A model generated the notes under the pieces. The model saw only the letters and a list, made by a program, of their open reading frames with translations, did not search any database and was not told the origin of the DNA. Positions 21,355 to 42,078 of a stretch of 64,000 nt of DNA are shown one piece after another. Where the stretch lies: contig CANMSO010000013.1 in the NCBI GenBank assembly GCA_947500545.1, positions 24,491 to 88,490 of the forward strand, in the 5' to 3' direction. The position numbers were made by a program, and so were the translations under genes. Each line of letters begins with the position of its first letter. The stretch's first letter is position 1. Source of the stretch: an uncultured Aquimarina sp. Its GTDB lineage: Bacteria > Bacteroidota > Bacteroidia > Flavobacteriales > Flavobacteriaceae.

Positions 21355-22113
21355 ATGGATATTCCTTTTGAGCCTATTGTTTTTGGTGTTAAAGTGAATA
21401 TCCATTTGGTTTTAGAGTATGCCGCTTTTTTTATCGGTTTTCGGTATTATATCTACTTAAAGAAGAATTCACAGGATGTAATATCATCATCTAATAGATT
21501 ATCAATAATTATAGGTGCAGTTTTCGGAGCCTTTTTTGGTTCTAGAATTGTTGGCTTTTTAGAGAACCCTATACTCTCATTCGGACCAGAATACCTTCTT
21601 TCTATACTTAACTCAAAAACTATTATGGGTGGACTTTTTGGTGGTTTACTTGGAGTAGAGTTGGCAAAAAAAATAATTAAAGAAAAACATTCTTCTGGGG
21701 ATTTGTTTACGTTTCCGATCATTTTGGGAATTATAGTGGGTAGATTAGGCTGCTTTTTATCAGGAATCAATGAGTTCACCTACGGAAAAGAAACTGGCTC
21801 TTTTCTTGGAATGGATTTGGGAGATGGTATAACAAGACATCCTATTGCACTTTATGAAATTATTTTCTTAATCACTTTATGGCTTTTTTTAAAACACATT
21901 CAGAAAAAGTCTATTTATAAAAGCGGGCTACTTTTTCAGTATTTTATGATTTTGTATTTTGTGTTTAGGCTTTTTATAGAATTCTTGAAACCTAATATAT
22001 TTTTGGTCTTAGGGTTAAGTAGTATTCAGTATTTATGTATCTTATGCTTGATTTATTATTGGAAAACAATTCGAGATACATTTTATGCCAACAAGAAACT
22101 ACACGTATTATGA
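21355..22113 (+). CDS. Divergent Lgt-family (prolipoprotein diacylglyceryl transferase-like) membrane protein
   Basis: About 7 TM; GRLGCFLSG, RHPIALYE and FRLFIEF correspond to Lgt motifs; KTIMGG stands where canonical Lgt has SFHGG. Confidence 0.85.
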   Translation: MDIPFEPIVFGVKVNIHLVLEYAAFFIGFRYYIYLKKNSQDVISSSNRLSIIIGAVFGAFFGSRIVGFLENPILSFGPEYLLSILNSKTIMGGLFGGLLGVELAKKIIKEKHSSGDLFTFPIILGIIVGRLGCFLSGINEFTYGKETGSFLGMDLGDGITRHPIALYEIIFLITLWLFLKHIQKKSIYKSGLLFQYFMILYFVFRLFIEFLKPNIFLVLGLSSIQYLCILCLIYYWKTIRDTFYANKKLHVL

Positions 22114-23479
22114 TTTTACATTAAGCTTATGTCCTACCTGTCTTAAAAGAATAGATGCTAAGATAGTTTTTGAAGAAGATAAAGTGTTTATGCTGAAACG
22201 TTGTCCAGAGCATGGTAGATCAAAAGTTTTGATTGCGGATGATATAGAATACTATAAGAGCATTAGAAATTATAATAAGCCTTCAGAATTTCCATATAAA
22301 TTTAATACGACTACAGATTATGGATGCCCTTATGATTGCGGACTGTGTCCAGATCATGAACAACACTCTTGTTTAACTATTATTGAAGTAACTGATCGCT
22401 GTAACTTAACTTGTCCTACTTGCTATGCTTCTTCATCTCCTCACTATGGGAGACATCGTTCTTTTGACGAGATTAAAAAGATGCTTGATACGATTGTTGA
22501 AAATGAAAAAGAACCGGATGTAGTACAAATTAGCGGAGGGGAACCAACTATACACCCCCAGTTTTTTGAAATTCTGGATTACGCCAAACAACTACCGATT
22601 CGACATCTTATGGTAAATACCAACGGAGTTCGTATTGCTAAGGATGTTAAATTCACAGAGCGATTGGCCGGATATATGCCAGATTTTGAAATTTATCTGC
22701 AATTTGATTCTTTACAAGAAGAAGTTCTAAAAAAATTAAGAGGAGAGAATTTAACACATATAAGAAAACAAGCTATACATAATCTTAATCAGTTTAACTT
22801 ATCTACAACTTTGGTGGTTACCTTGGAAAAAGGTTTGAATGATGATCAAATAGGAGAGGTTATTTCGTTTGCTACTAAACAAAAAAGTGTAAGAGGGGTT
22901 ACATTTCAACCTACACAAATTGCAGGTCGATTAGAAGATTTTGATGTGCAAACTAATAGAATAACATTAACCGAAGTAAGAAGAAAGATATTAGAGCAGT
23001 TTCCTATATTTGAATCTGATGATCTTATTCCTGTGCCCTGTAATCCAGATGCATTAGTGATGGGGTATGCGCTAAAAAATGAAGAAGGGATTTTGCCGCT
23101 TACAAGATATATCAATCCTACAGATTTATTGGATAATGGAAAAAATACTATTGTTTATGAGCAGGATGAAGAATTACACGGTAAAGTACTTGAACTTTTT
23201 AGTACGGGTAATTCTGTTGAAAGTGCCTCGGAAAACCTGAAATCCATTATGTGTTGCTTGCCAGAAATTGATGCACCCGATTTGGGTTATGATAACCTAT
23301 TTAGGATTATTATTATGCAATTTGTTGATGCCTATAACTTTGATGTTAGAGCGATCAAAAAATCTTGTGTTCATATTGTAAATAAAGATTACAAGATTAT
23401 TCCTTTTGAAACTATGAATTTGTTTTATAGAGATGATAAACAAGAATATCTAGAAAAACTAAGAAACGAAGTGATATGA
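22085..23479 (+). CDS. Radical SAM protein, tetraether synthase (Tes/MJ0619)-like architecture
   Basis: C16-x2-C19...C40-P-E-H43 N-terminal metal site, C81xxxC85xxC88xxH91 auxiliary motif, C106xxxC110xxC113 SAM cluster, SGGEPT, C-terminal SCVH...IIPF. Confidence 0.85.
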   Translation: MPTRNYTYYDFTLSLCPTCLKRIDAKIVFEEDKVFMLKRCPEHGRSKVLIADDIEYYKSIRNYNKPSEFPYKFNTTTDYGCPYDCGLCPDHEQHSCLTIIEVTDRCNLTCPTCYASSSPHYGRHRSFDEIKKMLDTIVENEKEPDVVQISGGEPTIHPQFFEILDYAKQLPIRHLMVNTNGVRIAKDVKFTERLAGYMPDFEIYLQFDSLQEEVLKKLRGENLTHIRKQAIHNLNQFNLSTTLVVTLEKGLNDDQIGEVISFATKQKSVRGVTFQPTQIAGRLEDFDVQTNRITLTEVRRKILEQFPIFESDDLIPVPCNPDALVMGYALKNEEGILPLTRYINPTDLLDNGKNTIVYEQDEELHGKVLELFSTGNSVESASENLKSIMCCLPEIDAPDLGYDNLFRIIIMQFVDAYNFDVRAIKKSCVHIVNKDYKIIPFETMNLFYRDDKQEYLEKLRNEVI

Positions 23480-25200: not shown

Positions 25201-26394
25201 TTATATAAACCCTAGTTTTTCAAAGTCTTTATTTAAAATCGTTTGATCATTTACATTTAACCAATTGTTTAATACCGATGCATAAACACTCCTGAAATCT
25301 ACAGAATATTTGATATCTCCGTTATTGTCTAAATCAGAAAGATTTGGTAATTCGTTATACACACCTGCTTTTTTCAAAGAACCACCTATGACAATTACGT
25401 TATTTGCTGCTCCATGATCGGTACCCCTGCTACCATTTTGTTTCACACGACGTCCAAATTCTGAAAAAGTAAGAATCAAGGTGTCCTTAAATCGATCATT
25501 CGCTTTTAAGTCTTTAACCAAGGCGCCAACAGAATCTGAGTATATTTTGAGCAATCGATCCTGGCTGTTTAATTGATTTACATGACTATCAAAACCTCCT
25601 AGTGAACTGTAAAACACTCTTGTTTTTAAGCCAGAGATTATAAAATCAGCAATTGTTTTTAGGTGCTTGGAAAATGGGTTTTGAGGGTATTCAGTATTGG
25701 TTTGATGAATCTTTGACGTTTCATAAATGTATGAAGCAGAGGAATAGGTTTCTAACATCGTTTTGTATAGATATCCCTGATTGTCTTCATCTAACATTTC
25801 TTTTTGAGTGTTCTTAATTATGTTCTTGAAAAAAGGTTCTCTTGTTGTTCGGTAGAGTTGGTTGGGATCGGAAGCAGCAATACCATTCATGGTGTTGCCT
25901 TTTAAGGCTAATGACAATGAATTATCTATTTCTATTGCTTGGTACGGGTGCTGGCAATTGGCATCCAGGTATCTGCCTACCCAACCTGTTGATAGATACT
26001 GATTGGTATCACTTGCCGTTTGCCAGATATCCGTACTTCTAAAATGTGATCTATTAGGATTAGGATACCCTACATTATTAATGATAGATACTTCTCCCAA
26101 GTCATATAGTTTTTTGATTTCTTTTAGGTTGTCATTAAAAGCTAAATCATCGGTAATTTTTAGTGTTCGAGATTCTTTTTTAGCAATAAATGGCCTTGCG
26201 CTATGATAGATATCGTTACTAATAGGGATAATACTATTTAATCCGTCATTTCCGCCAGAAAGTTGAATAATGATCACATTTCTATATCCCGATAATTGTT
26301 CTGGTGTTAGAAATTCCATTCCTTTTAAGAAAGAAGGAATCATCGTCATTCCTGATGCAAATACTGATTGTTTTAAAAAATCTCTCCGTTTCAT
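25201..26394 (-). CDS. DUF1501-family protein with Tat-like signal
   Basis: MKRRDFLK; QLSGGNDGLN, SHFRS, GGFDSH, FSEFGRR, GTDHG. Confidence 0.88.
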   Translation of the reverse strand: MKRRDFLKQSVFASGMTMIPSFLKGMEFLTPEQLSGYRNVIIIQLSGGNDGLNSIIPISNDIYHSARPFIAKKESRTLKITDDLAFNDNLKEIKKLYDLGEVSIINNVGYPNPNRSHFRSTDIWQTASDTNQYLSTGWVGRYLDANCQHPYQAIEIDNSLSLALKGNTMNGIAASDPNQLYRTTREPFFKNIIKNTQKEMLDEDNQGYLYKTMLETYSSASYIYETSKIHQTNTEYPQNPFSKHLKTIADFIISGLKTRVFYSSLGGFDSHVNQLNSQDRLLKIYSDSVGALVKDLKANDRFKDTLILTFSEFGRRVKQNGSRGTDHGAANNVIVIGGSLKKAGVYNELPNLSDLDNNGDIKYSVDFRSVYASVLNNWLNVNDQTILNKDFEKLGFI

Positions 26395-26406
26395 GGTCTT
26401 ATGGTT

Positions 26407-27810
26407 TTAGCAAAGTTGATATTCTGGTAGGCTCAATAGTTCGATAACAAAATTCTTGGTATCCTTTGCTTCTAATTTAGATACGATGACTTTGGCAGTT
26501 TCAGAAAGACTTGGTTGCAACATGAAATTTGTAAGTTCAGATTTGTTTTTTTGTTCCAAATCATCTAAAAATACTTGCCAATTGGGTATGGCTTTTACCT
26601 TCCTTTGAAGTTTTGACTTTATCTTTTTATAGACTTGTTGTCTGATAATCGTATTCTCTGGCATATCTCCTTTTTCATGCCATTCTATTACTCCGCTATT
26701 CAGCGTTAATGAAACTAATTTTAAACGAAGCATCAGTGTAGAGTTGTCTATCCATGCCCTTCCTCCTGTCCAGCCTGCTACATTTGGAGGAAAGAACAAC
26801 ATTTGATTTAGCTTTTTTTGAAGATAGAGCAATACCTTGGGGTCTTCATACTGTACTTGAAAAGACTTGCTAAGTCCTACTATTAGTTCGATAGGGGATT
26901 TAATCTTGGTTCCAATATTATTAGAAGAATAAAACCAATCACTCTTAAGAATCGCTCTTACTAGAGCTTGAAGATCGTAATTAGCATCATAAAAAATCGT
27001 TGTAAGATATTCAATGTGATTTTTATTAATGGTTTCATTCACAAAATAAGAATATATTTTCTCGGTGAGATATCGCGCAGTTTGTTTTTTTTCAAGAAGT
27101 ATTTTGATGACATCTTCCCCGGTGAAACTCCCTGTTTTATCAAAGATCGTTTTGGTACCATAATCATGATGGTTTTTTCTAAAAACAAATGTTCCATTCT
27201 TATTAAAATTCCAACCGGTAAATGCTCTGGCAGCCTCTTTGATATCATTTTCCGTATACCCATTATCTCTTCCCAGAGTAAATAACTCCATTACCTCACG
27301 GGCGAAATTTTCGTTAGGGTGGTCTTTTCTATTTTGCTTGTTGTTTAAAAATAGTAGCATTGCAGGAGATTTGGATACTTCCATAAGCATATCTCCAAAG
27401 TTCTCTAAAGCATGTTCACGAATGATGTTGTTAAGATGAATACATGCACGTGGGGTTCTAAGTCGTACGGCAAAATGATCATGAAAAAACAATGTCATTT
27501 TCTCACGTAACACTTGATCAGTGTCTATTAATTGTTTTAACCAAAGCGTATTTAACTCGGACATTTTTTTATTCCGGAGTTGTCGTAATTGTTTTCGTTC
27601 TTCTCTGGATAGCTCTTTAGAATTTTTTTCTAATGCCCCAAAACTCATAGATAATGGGGCGCTCTCCTTACTTTCTTCAAATAGTCGATCAATGATTTGA
27701 GTTTTTGAGAGGACTCTAACCGTTTCAAGTTCTGAGGCAGAAATTCCAAACCCGATTCTCCAATAGAGATGTTGAATTTGTTTGTCTGATAAAGAGGTAA
27801 TCATAATCAC
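26407..27810 (-). CDS. DUF1800-family protein
   Basis: LREKMTLFFHDHF, PAMLLFLN, PNENFAREVMELFTLG, PPNVAGW. Confidence 0.9.
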   Translation of the reverse strand: MIMITSLSDKQIQHLYWRIGFGISASELETVRVLSKTQIIDRLFEESKESAPLSMSFGALEKNSKELSREERKQLRQLRNKKMSELNTLWLKQLIDTDQVLREKMTLFFHDHFAVRLRTPRACIHLNNIIREHALENFGDMLMEVSKSPAMLLFLNNKQNRKDHPNENFAREVMELFTLGRDNGYTENDIKEAARAFTGWNFNKNGTFVFRKNHHDYGTKTIFDKTGSFTGEDVIKILLEKKQTARYLTEKIYSYFVNETINKNHIEYLTTIFYDANYDLQALVRAILKSDWFYSSNNIGTKIKSPIELIVGLSKSFQVQYEDPKVLLYLQKKLNQMLFFPPNVAGWTGGRAWIDNSTLMLRLKLVSLTLNSGVIEWHEKGDMPENTIIRQQVYKKIKSKLQRKVKAIPNWQVFLDDLEQKNKSELTNFMLQPSLSETAKVIVSKLEAKDTKNFVIELLSLPEYQLC

Positions 27811-27869
27811 AGTGTTTGTTGCTTAGACTGTGATAATTGGGAAAGGTTTAACGATAAATGATTTTAACC

Positions 27870-28196
27870 TTATTTCTTGGTTCTTACCGCGGCTTCATAA
27901 GATTTTGTGACCCAATCTTTTAGTTTGTTTTTGTCTTCAAGAATATCAGCTGGTACCTCCCAATAGGGCATTCCTTTCTTTTTCTTTTCAGAATAAAAAG
28001 GTTTCATGCCTTTGTCTTCATATTCTTTTTTGTTAAACTCATCTACCTTTAGTCTTAAGACATCACTACCGATTTTGCCAAACATAAGCCCCTGATGAAA
28101 TAAACCAATACCTCCAAACATTTTTTTGACGTCTACTTGGCCAAATTCGGACAATTGATCTGTTACATAATTTAGATATTCTTCGCTTACCGCCAT
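27870..28196 (-). CDS. TfoX N-terminal domain protein
   Basis: KKMFGGIGLF...LRLKVD...MPYWEVP. Confidence 0.85.
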   Translation of the reverse strand: MAVSEEYLNYVTDQLSEFGQVDVKKMFGGIGLFHQGLMFGKIGSDVLRLKVDEFNKKEYEDKGMKPFYSEKKKKGMPYWEVPADILEDKNKLKDWVTKSYEAAVRTKK

Positions 28197-28208
28197 AATA
28201 AAATGGTT

Positions 28209-28601
28209 TTAGTTTTTGTGTTGAATTAAATCCCACTTGTTGCCATACAGATCTTTGAAAACAACAACGGTTCCGTATACTTCCTCTCTAGGTTCTTCAA
28301 GAAAGATGACTCCTTTTGATTTCATACTGTTATAATCTCTCCAAAAATCATCTGTGTTTAGGAATAAAAAAACGCGCCCACCAGTTTGATAACCAATTGC
28401 TTTTTCTTGTTCTGGATTTGTTGCCTGAGCCAATAGGATATTAGTTTCGGTGTTGTTAGAAGGCGAGATTATGACCCATCTTTTTTCTTCGTCAAGTTTA
28501 GTGTCTTCAATAAGTTTAAAATTGAGCTTTTTGACATAAAATTGAATAGCCTCATCATAATCTTTAACTACTAAAGATATAGCTCCGATTTTGCGTTTCA
28601 T
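28209..28601 (-). CDS. VOC/glyoxalase family protein
   Basis: LVVKDYDEAIQFY and FKDLYGNKWDL. Confidence 0.88.
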   Translation of the reverse strand: MKRKIGAISLVVKDYDEAIQFYVKKLNFKLIEDTKLDEEKRWVIISPSNNTETNILLAQATNPEQEKAIGYQTGGRVFLFLNTDDFWRDYNSMKSKGVIFLEEPREEVYGTVVVFKDLYGNKWDLIQHKN

Positions 28602-29062
28602 TCGTTTTGTTTTACCTTAACAGTATCTGGTACAAGTCCAGAAACATCTCCGCCATTACGAATGACATCTCGCACAATTGAAGAAGAAATGTAGCTTTTT
28701 CCGGAAGAGGTTAATAGAAAAACAGTCTCAATTTCAGACATTTTTCGATTGGTATGAGCGATTGCTTTTTCAAATTCAAAATCTCCAGGATTACGCAACC
28801 CTCTTAAGATAAATTGAGCATTTTGTTTCTTGCAAAAATCAACAGTAAGTCCTTTATAAGTCATTACTTTGATTCTTGGTTCGCCTTTAAAAGCTTCTTC
28901 GATAAACTGTTTGCGTTCTTCTAGAGAAAACATGTATTTTTTATCGGCATTAACACCAATAGCAAGTATGACTTCATCAAAGAGTGTGAGTCCTCTTTCT
29001 ATAATATCATAGTGTCCTAAAGTAATGGGGTCAAATGATCCGGGAAAAACAGCTCTTCTCAT
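28598..29062 (-). CDS. coaD: Phosphopantetheine adenylyltransferase
   Basis: FPGSFDPITLGH, ILRGLR, ISSSIVR. Confidence 0.97.
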   Translation of the reverse strand: MRRAVFPGSFDPITLGHYDIIERGLTLFDEVILAIGVNADKKYMFSLEERKQFIEEAFKGEPRIKVMTYKGLTVDFCKKQNAQFILRGLRNPGDFEFEKAIAHTNRKMSEIETVFLLTSSGKSYISSSIVRDVIRNGGDVSGLVPDTVKVKQNE

Positions 29063-29133
29063 GTTTGATTATTGATTGGTGTGATTACAAAGATAATCGA
29101 AATTACAAATTATGTTTTTTTGATTCTGCTTCT

Positions 29134-30111
29134 TTAGGCTTTCATTGATTCTTCTACCGTATTTGTTAATAGATCTTTCAAACTAATTCCTGCCGCCAAT
29201 GCTTGTTGAGGTAAAATGCTTGCTTCACTAAAACCTGGATTAGTATTCATTTCAACAAAATGAGGTTCTCCATTGTGAAATATAAATTCACTACGTGAAA
29301 AGCCTTTCATCTTTAGTGTCTGATATATTTTTAATGCTAAATCCTGGACTTTCTTTGTATCCTTTTCTGATAATCTTGCCGGAGTAATTTCTTGCGATTT
29401 ACCTAAGTATTTAGCTTCGTAATCAAAAAACTCGTTTTCAGATACAATTTCAGTAATAGGTAAAACGGTATCTTCTCCTTTGTATGTAATAACACCAACA
29501 GATACTTCAGTACCACTTAAGAAAGATTCTATGATTATCTCATCATCTTCTTTATAGGCTACATCTATGGCCGGAGTCAATTCTGATTCCGTTTTAACCT
29601 TAGAAACACCATAGCTGCTACCTGCTTTGTTTGCTTTCACAAAACAAGGCAAGCCAACGATATCCAAAATCTCTTTAGTGTCTATTTTATCTCCTTTATT
29701 TAGGAAATAGTTGGTAGCAGTCGCTATTCCGTATGGTTTTAACGCACTAATACAATCACGTTTGTTAAATGTGAGTGCCGCTTGGTAAAAATCGCAGGCA
29801 GTTTGTGGGATTTCAATTAATTCAAAATACGCTTGTAGCAAACCATCTTCACCCGGAGTTCCATGAACAATATTAAAAGCTGCATCAAAAATAATTTTAG
29901 AATCATTTAAGGTAAGCGAAAAATCATTCTTATCAATCTGAAATTTCTGATCATTGTCATCTACATAAAACCACCCATTTTTAGTGATATGAACACGATA
30001 GGGGTTGTATAGATCCTTATCCAGGTGCTTATACACTACATTTCCGCTTTGGATAGATATGTCAAACTCGCTAGAATATCCACCCATCAAAATGGCAATG
30101 TTTTTCTTCAT
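29134..30111 (-). CDS. ddl: D-alanine--D-alanine ligase
   Basis: GGYSSE, HGTPGEDG, GSSYGV, FDYEAKY, EMNTNPG. ATG 30111 preferred. Confidence 0.95.
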   Translation of the reverse strand: MKKNIAILMGGYSSEFDISIQSGNVVYKHLDKDLYNPYRVHITKNGWFYVDDNDQKFQIDKNDFSLTLNDSKIIFDAAFNIVHGTPGEDGLLQAYFELIEIPQTACDFYQAALTFNKRDCISALKPYGIATATNYFLNKGDKIDTKEILDIVGLPCFVKANKAGSSYGVSKVKTESELTPAIDVAYKEDDEIIIESFLSGTEVSVGVITYKGEDTVLPITEIVSENEFFDYEAKYLGKSQEITPARLSEKDTKKVQDLALKIYQTLKMKGFSRSEFIFHNGEPHFVEMNTNPGFSEASILPQQALAAGISLKDLLTNTVEESMKA

Positions 30112-30178
30112 TGAAGTCACTTTTGAAAACAAAAATATCATTTATCTAATAAGAAAAGCTTAAAACTTTCCGTTTTTA

Positions 30179-30186
30179 TATATTTG
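30179..30186 (+). promoter_or_regulatory. -7 box of the PASTA gene
   Basis: TATATTTG just upstream of ATG 30195/30207. Confidence 0.55.
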
Positions 30187-30194
30187 TCCAAATT

Positions 30195-30803
30195 ATGCAT
30201 GTATTTATGAATGAAGTTGTAAAATTCTTTAAAGACCTATTTAAATTTGTTTATAGCAAGATATTCCTGATTCAGGTAGTGATTGCGATTGCAATGCTTG
30301 TGATACTTTCATATGTCTCATTGCAGTGGTTAGAAAGTACTACAAATCATCATCAACGAATTGTTGTACCTAGTTTAAGTAAAAAGACCCTTGATGAGAT
30401 TCAGAAAATCCTTGAAGAAAAGGATTTACGATATGAAGTTCAGGATTCTGCTAATTTTAATCCCGAATATCCTAGGTATTCTGTTATAGAACAAAATCCC
30501 GTTGCAGGAAGCGAAGTAAAGGAAAATCGTAAGATATATGTAACGTTAAACCCTTCTGGGTATCGAAAAATAGAAGTTCCTGATGTTGTACAGAGAACAA
30601 GAAGACAGGCTGAACCTAAATTGATTGCTTTAGGTTTTAAAATTGGTTCTGTTACTTATAAACCTAATATAGCTAGAGATATGGTTCTTGAACTTCGACA
30701 TAAAGGAAAACAATTAGATGCAGGAACCAAACTCATGAAAACTTCTGTTATTGATCTCGTTCTTGGAGACGGAAAGGGTGGAAGTATTAACCTTTCCAAT
30801 TAA
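30195..30803 (+). CDS. Membrane-anchored PASTA-domain protein
   Basis: TM helix, then VVPSL...VIEQNPVAGSEVK and VPDVV repeats. Confidence 0.88.
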   Translation: MHVFMNEVVKFFKDLFKFVYSKIFLIQVVIAIAMLVILSYVSLQWLESTTNHHQRIVVPSLSKKTLDEIQKILEEKDLRYEVQDSANFNPEYPRYSVIEQNPVAGSEVKENRKIYVTLNPSGYRKIEVPDVVQRTRRQAEPKLIALGFKIGSVTYKPNIARDMVLELRHKGKQLDAGTKLMKTSVIDLVLGDGKGGSINLSN

Positions 30804-30815
30804 TAATAATATACC

Positions 30816-31862
30816 TTGGAAGAAAACTTAGATACAGGAGATTTTGATGCCAACGAAGATGATCTTTACGAACATCATCGTTTTGTTGCAGGTGCAGGCC
30901 AAGTGCCATTGCGCGTCGATAAATTTTTAATGAATTTTGTTGAGAATGCAACTCGAAATAAAATACAGCAAGCTGCAAAGGATGGTAGTGTATTTGTTAA
31001 TGATGTTGCAGTAAAATCAAACCATAAGGTTAAACCTAATGATGTTGTACGAGTCCTATTCTCTCATCCACCATATGAGAACCTCTTAACTCCAGAGGAT
31101 ATTCCATTAGATATAGTATATGAAGATGACGCACTTCTTGTGGTTAACAAACCTGCCGGAATGGTAGTACACCCGGGACATGGTAATTACTCAGGAACTT
31201 TGATTAATGCATTAATTTATCATTTTGATAACTTACCCAATAACAGTAGTGATCGTCCTGGATTAGTGCATCGCATTGATAAAGATACTAGCGGGCTTTT
31301 AGTAATTGCTAAGACAGAAGAAGCAATGACACATCTGGCGAAACAGTTTTTTGATAAAACCAGTAAACGTGAATATGTGGCAATTGCTTGGGGTAATATT
31401 AATGAAGATGAGGGTACAATTGAAGGAAATATAGGACGACACCCAAGAAATAGATTACAGAATACCGTTTTTGAAGGTGATGAAGCAGAAAAAGGAAAAC
31501 CTGCAATTACACATTATGAAGTTATTGAACGATTGGGGTATGTGACTTTGGTGTCTTGTAAACTAGAAACAGGAAGAACTCATCAGATCAGAGTGCACAT
31601 GAAACATATAGGGCATACATTATTTAATGATGAACGTTATGGAGGAGAAAAAATATTAAAAGGAACAACTTTCACTAAATACAAACAGTTTGTAGAAAAC
31701 TGTTTCAAAATATTACCAAGACAAGCATTACATGCTAAAACTTTAGGTTTTGTCCACCCAGTAACGGGTAAAGAAATGCATTTTGAAACTCCCATCCCAG
31801 AAGATATGGAGCTATGTGTTGAACGCTGGAGGAAATATGCTAAGAATCAATTGGCTGATTAA
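30816..31862 (+). CDS. RluA-family pseudouridine synthase (RluD-like)
   Basis: S4 domain RVDKFL, VNKPAGMVVHP, HRIDKDTSG, GRTHQIRVH. Confidence 0.93.
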   Translation: MEENLDTGDFDANEDDLYEHHRFVAGAGQVPLRVDKFLMNFVENATRNKIQQAAKDGSVFVNDVAVKSNHKVKPNDVVRVLFSHPPYENLLTPEDIPLDIVYEDDALLVVNKPAGMVVHPGHGNYSGTLINALIYHFDNLPNNSSDRPGLVHRIDKDTSGLLVIAKTEEAMTHLAKQFFDKTSKREYVAIAWGNINEDEGTIEGNIGRHPRNRLQNTVFEGDEAEKGKPAITHYEVIERLGYVTLVSCKLETGRTHQIRVHMKHIGHTLFNDERYGGEKILKGTTFTKYKQFVENCFKILPRQALHAKTLGFVHPVTGKEMHFETPIPEDMELCVERWRKYAKNQLAD

Positions 31863-31978
31863 GAAATGGTTAAAGAAACTGCATGCTTTTTGCATTATTA
31901 AACCGTTTTTATAATATTAAATAAAAGTTACCAAAAACTTTATTTTGAAATTAATTGTAATTCTTTATCAAATAATAG

Positions 31979-31986
31979 TACATTTG
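31979..31986 (+). promoter_or_regulatory. -7 box of the cold-shock gene
   Basis: TACATTTG, 17 nt before the ATG. Confidence 0.6.
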
Positions 31987-32003
31987 CGTTTTAATATTTT
32001 ATA

Positions 32004-32195
32004 ATGAATAAAGGAACAGTAAAATTTTTCAATGATTCCAAAGGATTTGGTTTCATTACAGAAGAAGGATCAAACAAAGATCACTTTGTACACATCTCAG
32101 GATTAATCGACGAAGTTCGTGAAGGAGATGAAGTTGAGTTTGACCTTAAAGAAGGTAAAAAAGGATTAAACGCAGTAAATGTTAAAGTGATTTAA
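32004..32195 (+). CDS. Cold-shock protein
   Basis: RNP1 KGFGFIT and RNP2 FVHIS. Confidence 0.96.
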   Translation: MNKGTVKFFNDSKGFGFITEEGSNKDHFVHISGLIDEVREGDEVEFDLKEGKKGLNAVNVKVI

Positions 32196-40400: not shown

Positions 40401-40913
40401 TCCTATAAATTGTATCCAAAAGTGTTTACCGGTGCCTATAATCATCACCTGAAATATGGGAATGTAATGAATATTCCTACCAAAAACTTTTTCTACGGGA
40501 TGGATCCTGAAGAAGAAATTATTGTAAAGTTGGATCAAGGGAAAACGTTATTGGTTCAATTGATTTCTGTGGGTGATCCTAATGAAGAAGGTAAAGTTAC
40601 TGTATTCTTTAAGGTAAATGGCCAAACACGTAATGTAGAAATACAGGATAACTCAATAAAAGTAGATAAGGTTGTTCATGCAAAAGTAGATAAAGCTGAT
40701 GAAAAGCAAATTGGAGCACCATTGCAAGGTTCACTATCTTCTGTTTTAGTAAAAACTGGTCAGGAGGTGAAGAAAAATGACCCTTTATTTATTATTGAAG
40801 CCATGAAAATGGAAACGACAATTACTGCAAATGAGAGTGCTGTGATAAAGAAAATAGTTCTTAAGCCTGGTACAATGGTAGAGGCAGATGATTTGATAAT
40901 AACACTGAAATAA
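37461..40913 (+). CDS. pyc: Pyruvate carboxylase
   Basis: Biotin carboxylase (ANRGEIA, GGGGRG), carboxyltransferase (RDAHQS) and biotinyl EAMKM domains in 1150 aa. Confidence 0.98.
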   Translation: MQIKKVLVANRGEIAIRIFRACTEIGLNTVGVYTYEDRYSLHRYKADEAYQIGENHEPLKPYLNIDAIIKVAKKNNVDAIHPGYGFLSENAEFAKQCEENDIIFIGPKVSVLRSLGDKITAKKVAIDNDIPIIQSNKEDLLDVKVAIKEAKRIGFPVMLKAASGGGGRGMRVIRNQEELEKAFPESRREALNAFGDDTVFLEKFVENPKHIEIQIVADHHGNMVHLFERDCSVQRRYQKVIEYAPSFGVPEETKQSLYKYALDICKAVDYNNIGTVEFLVDDDGSIYFIEVNPRVQVEHTVTEIVTGIDLIKAQIFIAGGYKLSDQQIKIESQESLTINGFALQCRITTEDPENDFKPDYGTITTYRSASGFGIRLDAGSVYQGVTISPFFDSMLVKVSANSRTLDGACRKMRRALSEFRIRGVKTNMPFLDNILNHETFRKGEATVNFIQNTKSLFAIRESRNRATKLVNFLGDVIINGNPDVKKIDPTKTLIEAGIPKFDESMSYPKGTKDLLTELGPEKFATWLKNEKKVHFTDTTMRDAHQSLLATRMRSYDMLKVAEGFAKNHPEVFSMEVWGGATFDVCLRFLRENPWERLRELRKAMPNLLLQMLIRGSNGVGYTAYPDNLIGKFVEQSWENGVDVFRIFDSLNWMKSIAPCIEHVRTRTNGLAEGSLCYTGDILDPKRTKYTLEYYIQLAKDIENAGAHILGIKDMAGLLKPYAAYELVSALKSEISIPIHLHTHDTSSVQSATYLKAIEAGVDVVDVALGGLSGLTAQPNFNAIVEMLRFHERENVLDIPKLNEYSNYWESVREHYYVFESGLKAGTGEVYQHEIPGGQYSNLKPQAEALGLSDRFHEITKMYGEVNELFGDVVKVTPSSKVVGDMAQYLVSNNLTIEDVKEQGETISFPQSVMSFFKGELGQPVGGFPKALQKSVLKDQKPFTDRPNAHLEPVDFETEFKDFEKVFKKGMGRELDITDFLSYKLYPKVFTGAYNHHLKYGNVMNIPTKNFFYGMDPEEEIIVKLDQGKTLLVQLISVGDPNEEGKVTVFFKVNGQTRNVEIQDNSIKVDKVVHAKVDKADEKQIGAPLQGSLSSVLVKTGQEVKKNDPLFIIEAMKMETTITANESAVIKKIVLKPGTMVEADDLIITLK

Positions 40914-40927
40914 TTTTAATAGCAAAG

Positions 40928-40952
40928 AAAAGGGCTTTATGCCCCTTTTTTT
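40928..40952. terminator. Probable bidirectional terminator
   Basis: AAAAGGGC / GCCCCTTTTTTT between pyc and the convergent small ORF. Confidence 0.6.
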
Positions 40953-40968
40953 AATAGGAATTCAGATT

Positions 40969-41136
40969 CTAGCCAAAAGGACAATCAGCCGGATAAGCAT
41001 CTAAACTTTCTGGTGGACCGCAAGTACCAAGATGCGAATGGCACCCGCCAATAGTACCTCCTTTAATTGTTCTCTGTTCAAGATCTGAAATTACATTTTT
41101 GTTCAATTTCAATTTTTTTAAATTTAGCTTTTTCAT
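40969..41136 (-). CDS. Double-glycine leader peptide precursor (RiPP-like), 55 aa
   Basis: Manual translation: MKKLNLKKLKLNKNVISDLEQRTIKGG-TIGGCHSHLGTCGPPESLDAYPADCPFG*. Below the ORF-track cutoff. Confidence 0.8.
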   Translation of the reverse strand: MKKLNLKKLKLNKNVISDLEQRTIKGGTIGGCHSHLGTCGPPESLDAYPADCPFG

Positions 41137-41355
41137 GATATATATTTAAATTGATTAATACTTAAATTTATTGAATAATAGAAGTTCATTTATATAGGTA
41201 TTGTTAATTAACTTAGGGTTAACTGTCTTTATAGAAAGGTTAAAAATGATTAATCTTGAACTTGTCATAACCTAAATTCACTCCTAAACTTTATAAACTG
41301 TTAGAAACTGATGGTTTTGTGATTCTCCTTAAATAGTTTTATTACTTTTACAACT

Positions 41356-42078
41356 ATGCAATATTTTTTAATCTTAGCCTTACAAGGTTTTTGTGCTTAT
41401 CATGCATATAAAAATAAAAACCAGTACTATTGGTATCTTGTGATCATATTTTTACCAGTATTAGGAAGTATTATATACCTGCTTACGCAAGTTTTTAATA
41501 AAAGAGATATTGATGTAGTACAGAATGAGATTGTTAATGTGATTAATCCAACTAAGAAGGTTAAGGATTTGCAAAAACAATTGGATTTTGCAGATACATT
41601 TCAAAATCGGGTTAATTTGGCGGATGCTTTGTCTGAAATTGGCGATTATACTAATGCTATAGCAGAGTATGAGATTACACTTAAGAATAATTATGATAAA
41701 GATGAGGGAGTTGTTAAAAAATTAATTGAAGTATACTACCAAATCAAAGATTTTGAAAGAGTCATTTTTTGTGCTGAAGAGATCACTATGTCTACAAGCT
41801 TTATAGGATCTAGAAGTCAATTTCTGTATGGTTTAGCACTAGAGGAGATAGGGCAATCCGATAGAGCAGAAGAAAACCTGAGACCAATAGATCAAAGGTA
41901 TTCTAACTACCAGGAGAGATACGAGCTTGCTGAGTTTCTAGTAGAAAAAGGAAAAATAGGTGATGCAAAAGAAATACTATCTGAAGTTTTGACAGAATCG
42001 CAACATATGTCAAAACCCAATCAAAGTAAATATCGAGCAGTTATAAATGATGTTCAAAAGTTAGTTTCTTCTCTCTAA
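41356..42078 (+). CDS. Membrane-anchored TPR-like protein
   Basis: Two N-terminal TM (WYLVIIFLPVLGSIIY), DTFQNRVNLAD, helical repeats. Confidence 0.75.
   Translation: MQYFLILALQGFCAYHAYKNKNQYYWYLVIIFLPVLGSIIYLLTQVFNKRDIDVVQNEIVNVINPTKKVKDLQKQLDFADTFQNRVNLADALSEIGDYTNAIAEYEITLKNNYDKDEGVVKKLIEVYYQIKDFERVIFCAEEITMSTSFIGSRSQFLYGLALEEIGQSDRAEENLRPIDQRYSNYQERYELAEFLVEKGKIGDAKEILSEVLTESQHMSKPNQSKYRAVINDVQKLVSSL

Follow-up and report, generated by a model that had tools for sequence, protein, structure and literature searches.

Is a 55-codon reading frame that stands alone beside the gene for pyruvate carboxylase a genuine peptide gene and, if so, by what machinery would its product be modified and exported? 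The question arises in the window analysed here, the whole 64,000-nucleotide stretch C13:24491-88490 of contig C13 (89.6 kb) in the 5.4-Mb Aquimarina genome G000 (33.9% G+C). Translation of window positions 40969..41136 on the minus strand gave the peptide MKKLNLKKLKLNKNVISDLEQRTIKGGTIGGCHSHLGTCGPPESLDAYPADCPFG, and no open reading frame of 30 aa or more overlapped this interval on the opposite strand. An earlier note on this DNA had described a 27-aa leader ending in Gly-Gly, followed by a 28-aa core with three Cys plus Thr/Ser, and the translation agrees with that description. Coordinates of the features at the locus, and the content of the related loci elsewhere in the genome, are collected in Table 1.

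Table 1. Features of the peptide locus (window coordinates) and related loci on other contigs (contig coordinates)
Feature	Position	Strand	Basis or content
Precursor peptide gene, 55 codons + stop	40969..41136	-	ORF listing, translation, dN/dS, syntenic orthologues
Leader, residues 1-27, MKKLNLKKLKLNKNVISDLEQRTIKGG	41056..41136	-	LxLxKx5L (L9..L19) and cleavage site G26 G27
Core, residues 28-55, TIGGCHSHLGTCGPPESLDAYPADCPFG	40972..41055	-	Alignment of family members
pyc, pyruvate carboxylase, 1150 aa	37461..40913	+	Pfam families, synteny
GC-rich hairpin between pyc and the peptide gene	40928..40948	.	Terminator scan, fold
Possible Bacteroidetes-type -7 box, TAAATTTA	41163..41170	-	Script scan
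Radical SAM protein, TrsS/Tes-like	22085..23479	+	332 bits TrsS, 296 bits Tes
C10 cluster			Four precursors, two LanC (26362-27594 and 27806-29020), LanB N-terminal domain (29043-31286, 747 aa), separate Lant_dehydr_C (31279-32172, 297 aa)
C4/C22 cluster			Split LanB, six to seven precursors, LanC, C39 ABC transporter, HlyD
C12 locus	C12:73299-74843		Stand-alone LanC, one adjoining precursor, another 6 kb off, no LanB
C16 locus	C16:44062-45441		LanC-like, lipoprotein-type N-terminus, CCG in place of the LanC zinc-ligand CHG
C1 cluster	C1:890-905k		C39 ABC transporter, HlyD, 13 precursors of the same leader type; no LanB/LanC
C6 locus			One more C39 ABC transporter

Comparison with related genomes showed that the reading frame is a true, conserved gene for a secreted-peptide precursor. 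Orthologues convergent to pyc were found in five or more further Aquimarina genomes or metagenome contigs. Those with the same core lie directly downstream of pyc in G015, in GCA_947496355, in the closed chromosome OZ246021 and in three metagenome contigs, which carry P0003. At this one syntenic site, four or more species share the core. As determined by the Nei-Gojobori method, dN/dS was 0.14 against G015, 0.16 against OZ246021 and 0.08 between G015 and OZ246021, values that are to be read with synonymous sites near saturation; the comparison value for the neighbouring pyc was 0.02. Because of this purifying selection and the synteny in other species, the frame is more than a chance occurrence. 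In the near-identical strain GCA_947496355.1 (L033), an 8-nt deletion (window 41129-41136) removes the ATG of the peptide and brings an upstream ATG into frame, giving a 70-aa product (P0002). The sequence of this strain otherwise differs by two synonymous changes and one L-to-I change, and its core is unchanged. This alternative ATG could be located 5′ of the putative -7 box.

The exact 55-aa product occurs, unnamed, in an NCBI-derived protein set. A word-index homologue search found only the peptide and one protein of 98% identity, and an exhaustive profile search produced 24 matches, mostly to the leader only. The Pfam scan of the peptide gave LRR_8 and Lactococcin, both below cut-off and noise only. 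At 90% identity, the peptide (P0001) is clustered with a 377-aa pentapeptide-repeat protein (P0027) to which it is unrelated, an artefact of the clustering.

The flanks of the gene were examined for signals and for partner genes. Of the two flanking elements described earlier, an own upstream region and a downstream hairpin, both are present, the latter being shared with the convergent pyc. The hairpin has a stem of 8 bp with four GC pairs, as identified by the terminator scan; its stronger, longer U-run faces pyc, its fold energy is ordinary (z = -0.5), and it is also kept in L033 and L022. From its position between two convergent genes, it is probably a bidirectional terminator common to pyc and the peptide gene. 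On the 5′ side, the peptide gene shares a 219-nt intergenic region with the divergent gene for a 240-aa TPR membrane protein. A script scan of this region identified TAAATTTA, with one mismatch to TAnnTTTG, 26 nt 5′ of the ATG, and a comparable -7 box lies 32 nt 5′ of the start in two orthologues. The same scan found no -33 TTG upstream of the peptide gene, and TAAATTTA, a possible, weak candidate for a promoter box, is the sole promoter-like element of the region. An Rfam scan of positions 40700-41500 gave three matches, all far under the gathering scores, so that no known RNA explains the region.

The neighbours of the peptide gene are housekeeping genes. Within about 12 kb, they comprise genes for D-Ala-D-Ala ligase (Ddl), a PASTA protein, RluD, YaaA, a TRAP transporter and a lipoprotein, together with pyc, the TPR protein gene, genes for two GDSL/SGNH proteins and an MBOAT protein, and the trp operon. 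Among the species compared, no neighbour but pyc is conserved; G015, OZ246021 and A. celericrescens lack the TPR protein gene at the pyc-adjacent position. The locus therefore encodes no functional partner, and pyc serves only to mark the position of the peptide gene. Other Gly-Gly peptides fill the same slot beside pyc in G006, G008, G014, G019 and A. celericrescens. A second, unrelated Gly-Gly family, with the core ...NLPSVKGSPIECESSLNHxCNFAC..., was found there in G015 (L022/L044), G019 (L046), G008 (L057), G014 (L048) and A. celericrescens (L035). The number of Gly-Gly peptide genes in the slot varies between species from 0 to 2.

The leader was compared with those of known precursor classes. 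Many class I LanAs of Bacteroidetes bear the motif LxLxKx5L, not FxLD, and such leaders often end in Gly-Gly and are accompanied by C39 proteases in their clusters (Walker et al. 2020, PMC7268733). The present leader contains the motif as L9-K-L11-N-K13-NVISD-L19, followed by G26 G27. By motif definition it is thus of the K/L-rich Bacteroidota class I lanthipeptide type, which is the type that had been proposed for it. On the profile for class I lanthipeptide leaders, NF038153 (lant_leader_L1a), the peptide scored 10.5 bits, below the cut-off of 22 bits and outside formal membership, and the G015 orthologue scored 21.5 bits. Paralogues C12:80638 (28.9 bits), C4:519535 (29.3 bits) and C12:73299 (25.1 bits) passed. 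The precursor C10:25012, directly beside LanC/LanB, reached only 13.4 bits; the cut-off therefore misses genuine cluster members, and a sub-threshold score is not disqualifying.

Alignment with 30 paralogues identified the leader of C12:80638, 6 kb from a LanC, as the closest in the genome (63% identity). Next were C4:511770 (59%, 4 kb from a LanB) and C1:847387 (59%), and the precursors of the C10 LanBC cluster showed leader identities of 52-56% to the peptide. The leader matches neither Nif11 nor NHLP. The classical double-glycine leader consensus is LSxxELxxIxGG, and the leader tail ISDLEQRTIKGG matches it at positions -12, -11, -8, -4, -2 and -1 (I16, S17, E20, I24, G26 and G27), with a non-hydrophobic Q at -7.

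The 28-aa core contains three Cys, two Thr and two Ser. Conserved positions are T28 (T/S28), C32, S34, T38, C39, S44 and C52, and each Cys has a conserved Ser/Thr N-terminal of it. All seven Ser/Thr/Cys positions are kept in four orthologues, compared with 12 invariant positions among the 21 others of the core, a difference that was counted by hand and is marginal (one-sided hypergeometric test, p ~0.04). The family alignment shows a C-terminal module, PESLxA(Y/F)PAxC(P/H)(F/I)G. The TARA peptide P0006 and the pyc-adjacent peptide of G006 have only this module, in the form PES(L/V)xA(Y/F/W)PAxC(P/H)(F/I)G, in common with the family. Such restricted sharing suggests a conserved Ser-to-Cys macrocycle or a binding loop at the C-terminal end of the core.

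Modification and export genes were located by genome-wide family searches. Lant_dehydr_N, LANC_like and Peptidase_C39 gave no match anywhere on the 89.6-kb contig C13, so that the absence of a modifying enzyme or C39 transporter near the gene, as reported by the earlier note, extends to the whole contig. The LanB, LanC and C39 loci for which that note had advised a search all exist on other contigs. There are two split LanB, with N-terminal domains at C10:29163 and C4:515660 and a separate Lant_dehydr_C ORF for each. Five LanC-like proteins of 397-459 aa (four LanC and one atypical) are encoded on C10 (two), C12, C16 and C22, and no LanM-sized LanC-domain protein was found in the genome. The three C39 ABC transporters (C1:896308-898440, C6:271460-273664 and C22:1807-4074; 112-133 bits) have N-termini with the catalytic Cys motif ECG or DCGPTC, and an HlyD-size ORF follows each. 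All LanB, LanC and C39 transporter frames are free of internal stops.

The C4/C22 cluster probably runs on into the start of C3. A LanC and a precursor stand without LanB on C12, which already implies cross-locus action in this genome. The C1 cluster uses the same leader type without LanB or LanC, and the leader alone is accordingly no proof of lanthionine formation. The LanC-like gene on C16 adjoins two short precursors, each with one C-terminal Cys. The closed chromosome OZ246021 carries the orthologue at 1.509 Mb and its two LanB genes at 2.694 and 3.292 Mb, so that at least 1.19 Mb lies between precursor and LanB; their separation is thus genuine and no product of the assembly. The studied gene is not clustered with LanB/LanC in either genome and is thus an orphan, as had been claimed.

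To what extent the peptide has company in the genome was determined by a regex scan for small ORFs of the form LxLxKx5L...G[GAS], which gave 36 matches in the genome and 6 in the reversed genome. Curation of these matches, with inclusion of the C4 array, left 31 LxLxK..GG peptides on 10 contigs, and leaders of other types head about 20 more Gly-Gly peptides, giving about 50 Gly-Gly peptides overall. About nine of the 31, the studied peptide included, are orphans. Mean pairwise identity was 0.53 for the leaders and 0.28, which is background level, for the cores. Cys makes up 9.2% of the library cores vs 0.7% of the proteome, and Thr, Gly and Pro are also enriched. The number of Cys is odd in 21 of the 31 cores, which is hard to reconcile with disulfides as the sole cross-links. 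Numerous and scattered over the genome, with their leader conserved and their cores hypervariable, these precursors have the features of a prochlorosin-like library, and both the paralogues that the earlier note expected and the dispersed library that it envisaged are borne out by these counts.

Sequence motifs upstream of the clustered precursor genes were also identified. The 26-nt motif ACCGAAAAnCCTTTAATAGAGTAGGT lies 22-28 nt 5′ of the ATG of precursor genes in the LanBC clusters (C10:24963-24988, C10:26020-26045 and C4:518720-518745). It also occurs 5′ of four genes on C5 (129543, 129885, 132190 and 134786), which encode an unrelated small-peptide family of the form MKKKFLIPVVGLFVCAM...ESDNIALAEG followed by Cys-rich tails. 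With eight matches in the genome vs none in the reversed genome, ACCGAAAAnCCTTTAATAGAGTAGGT may be a shared regulatory or 5′-UTR element connecting the two peptide families. The palindrome CGAAATTCnnGAATTTCG lies about 85-115 nt 5′ of most precursor genes in the C1 transporter cluster (C1:890500-905000), where three TPR + AraC-HTH proteins of 575-578 aa are each encoded just 5′ of a precursor gene; the palindrome and these proteins are likely an operator/regulator pair. A third, hairpin-like motif showed no enrichment over control. Both ACCGAAAAnCCTTTAATAGAGTAGGT and CGAAATTCnnGAATTTCG are missing 5′ of the studied peptide gene, which accordingly shows no sign of co-regulation with the clustered precursors.

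Across the genus, LanB was found in 20 of 24 genomes and C39 transporters in 23 of 24, and a C6-type transporter of about 734-739 aa occurs in most. The four LanB-less genomes (G007, G010, G011 and G017), three of which keep C39 transporters, contain no peptide-sized leader homologue: the search gave no match in G007, G010 and G017, and only a chance match inside a 617-aa frame in G011. In 10 relatives (G008, G009, G012, G016, G018, G019, G020, G022, G023 and G024), leader homologues lie 10 kb or less from LanB, as found by comparing coordinates by hand. No close pyc orthologue is present in the LanB-less genomes either, which probably form a divergent clade, and the correlation between leader and LanB is thus confounded by phylogeny.

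Taken with the library, these results can be set against other accounts of the peptide. The main rival holds that it is an unmodified or disulfide-only double-glycine peptide, of the class II bacteriocin or pheromone type, which is cleaved and exported by a C39 transporter. Peptides that use ComA/LagD/LahT-type export share with it the Gly-Gly site, hydrophobic residues at -4 and -12 and Glu at -8, and the leader tail ISDLEQRTIKGG fits LSxxELxxIxGG. Exporters would be at hand, in the form of three intact C39 ABC transporters with an N-terminal catalytic Cys motif and HlyD partners; one of them belongs to the transporter-only cluster on C1, with 13 peptides of the same leader type, and the C6-type transporter is found in most genomes of the genus. 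That the studied gene has none of the cis motifs of the clustered precursors also counts in favour of this account. The composition of the core, however, argues against this account: three Cys cannot all pair, the odd number recurs in 21 of the 31 library cores, and a conserved Ser/Thr stands upstream of every Cys. Unlike class II double-glycine peptides, moreover, this one has the LxLxKx5L block and the K-rich N-terminus that are typical of LanB-associated Bacteroidota leaders, and no immunity or transporter gene at its locus. Its nearest leaders adjoin LanC or LanB, and the leader type is missing from LanB-less genomes of the genus that retain C39 transporters. An unmodified peptide is less probable than a lanthipeptide-like one, and is the most serious of the alternatives.

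Much less probable is assignment to another RiPP class, either the rSAM-modified TIGR04149 'GG-Bacteroidales' precursors or the substrates of an unrecognised enzyme, such as the radical SAM protein encoded in the window. TIGR04149, which likewise describes a Bacteroidota Gly-Gly leader, was the best NCBIfam match of the peptide, but the match was weak (16.8 bits, E = 0.005, below the 25-bit cut-off), and the model also matched 7 of 14 control genomes, none of them over cut-off. The maturase that defines that system, the radical SAM/SPASM protein TIGR04148, is missing from the genome (best score 26.6 bits vs a cut-off of 300), and the TIGR04149 reading was rejected on these two grounds, the sub-cut-off score and the missing maturase. 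The radical SAM protein, 17.5 kb from the peptide gene, fell short of the TrsS cut-off of 490 bits, and its other match was to the tetraether lipid synthase Tes. Only pyc, and not this protein, is syntenic with the peptide in other species. As a TrsS/Tes-like protein, and not a peptide maturase, it was rejected as the maturase. Least probable of all is a non-functional remnant or a chance ORF without product. The 8-nt deletion that takes the start codon in GCA_947496355 and the lack of a clear promoter would suit a remnant, but the deletion strain keeps the frame via the upstream ATG with the core unchanged, and four or more species have the core conserved at the one syntenic site. Because of the selection signal (dN/dS 0.08-0.16, with synonymous sites saturated), a decaying gene is unlikely.

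The explanation that we favour, with modest confidence, is that the gene encodes a stand-alone LanA-type precursor of a class I lanthipeptide-like RiPP, which would be modified and exported in trans. It agrees with the reading of the earlier note, which is supported to the extent that sequence can probe it. We infer that dehydration, cyclisation and cleavage would all be carried out by proteins encoded at other loci. A LanB from C10 or C4 would bind the leader and dehydrate Ser/Thr residues of the core (T28, S34, T38 and S44). LanC would then add C32, C39 and C52 to upstream dehydro residues, producing up to three thioether rings. Since a conserved Ser/Thr precedes each Cys, the likely rings would be T28-C32, S34-C39 and S44-C52. 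Finally, a C39 ABC transporter would cut after G27 and export a peptide of about 2.7 kDa, perhaps an antimicrobial or a signal. The calculated monoisotopic mass of the core is 2801.19 Da when unmodified and 2799.17 Da in its disulfide form, and would fall to 2747.16 or 2729.15 Da on three or four dehydrations.

As a stand-alone class I precursor, the peptide can be placed beside described systems. Among the LxLxKx5L-GG class I lanthipeptides of Bacteroidota (Walker et al. 2020, PMC7268733), characterised examples are the pinensins, Ped15.1/15.2 from Pedobacter lusitanus and LanI-101 from Runella limosa. The peptide resembles the LanAs of this class in its leader motif, Gly-Gly site, short K-rich N-terminus and Cys/Ser/Thr-rich core, and the genome has the split LanB, LanC and C39 ABC transporter genes that are found in their clusters. 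It differs in that its gene is unclustered, alone by pyc and on another contig than all the machinery. Its NF038153 score is below the cut-off, and its core is unrelated to that of any characterised lanthipeptide. The peptide extends a known class by one uncharacterised member and does not represent a new system.

Precursors encoded far from their enzymes have been described in marine picocyanobacteria. The prochlorosins (ProcA/ProcM) combine a conserved leader with hypervariable cores in numerous precursors; many of these are encoded at a distance from the synthetase, and a few enzymes are presumed to process them in trans (PMC7268733). The genome studied here resembles that system in its dispersed precursors, conserved leader and hypervariable cores. 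It differs in the enzymes and the leader: prochlorosins are class II, with a single LanM and Nif11-type leaders, whereas the present genome has class I split LanB and separate LanC, with an LxLxKx5L leader. More tentatively than for the single gene, we suggest that Aquimarina, and probably Kordia, could follow a class I prochlorosin-like strategy, in which few LanB, LanC and C39 exporters would serve 30-50 precursors of a single leader type, hypervariable in their cores, many of them orphans fixed in housekeeping slots. The pyc-adjacent site may be an example of such a slot, filled by one or two unrelated cores per species, and the family of the studied peptide may be defined by PES(L/V)xA(Y/F/W)PAxC(P/H)(F/I)G as a C-terminal ring module.

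As a single locus, the gene adds one more uncharacterised precursor, of a class and leader type already described. If the model of processing in trans were true, the Aquimarina LanB and LanC would be substrate-tolerant class I enzymes that act on dozens of unrelated cores and would be useful for peptide engineering, and the conserved core would be a new ring scaffold. Genome mining based on clusters covers only about seven genes around a LanC (PMC7268733). Since mining so limited misses orphans of this kind, it arrives at too small a lanthipeptide repertoire for marine Flavobacteriia.

A second dispersed Gly-Gly leader type, M(L/S)xNILNLEGVxxLxKxxQxxINGG, was also observed at the head of Cys-rich cores in the genome. 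It occurs at C10:148462-149486, C12:81571-81756, C4:29631-29774, C5:389286-389447, C1:615783-615980 and C11:123805-124020. In G004, the slot beside pyc holds a peptide of the other leader type. In the relatives L025 and L029, the second leader type forms tandem arrays.
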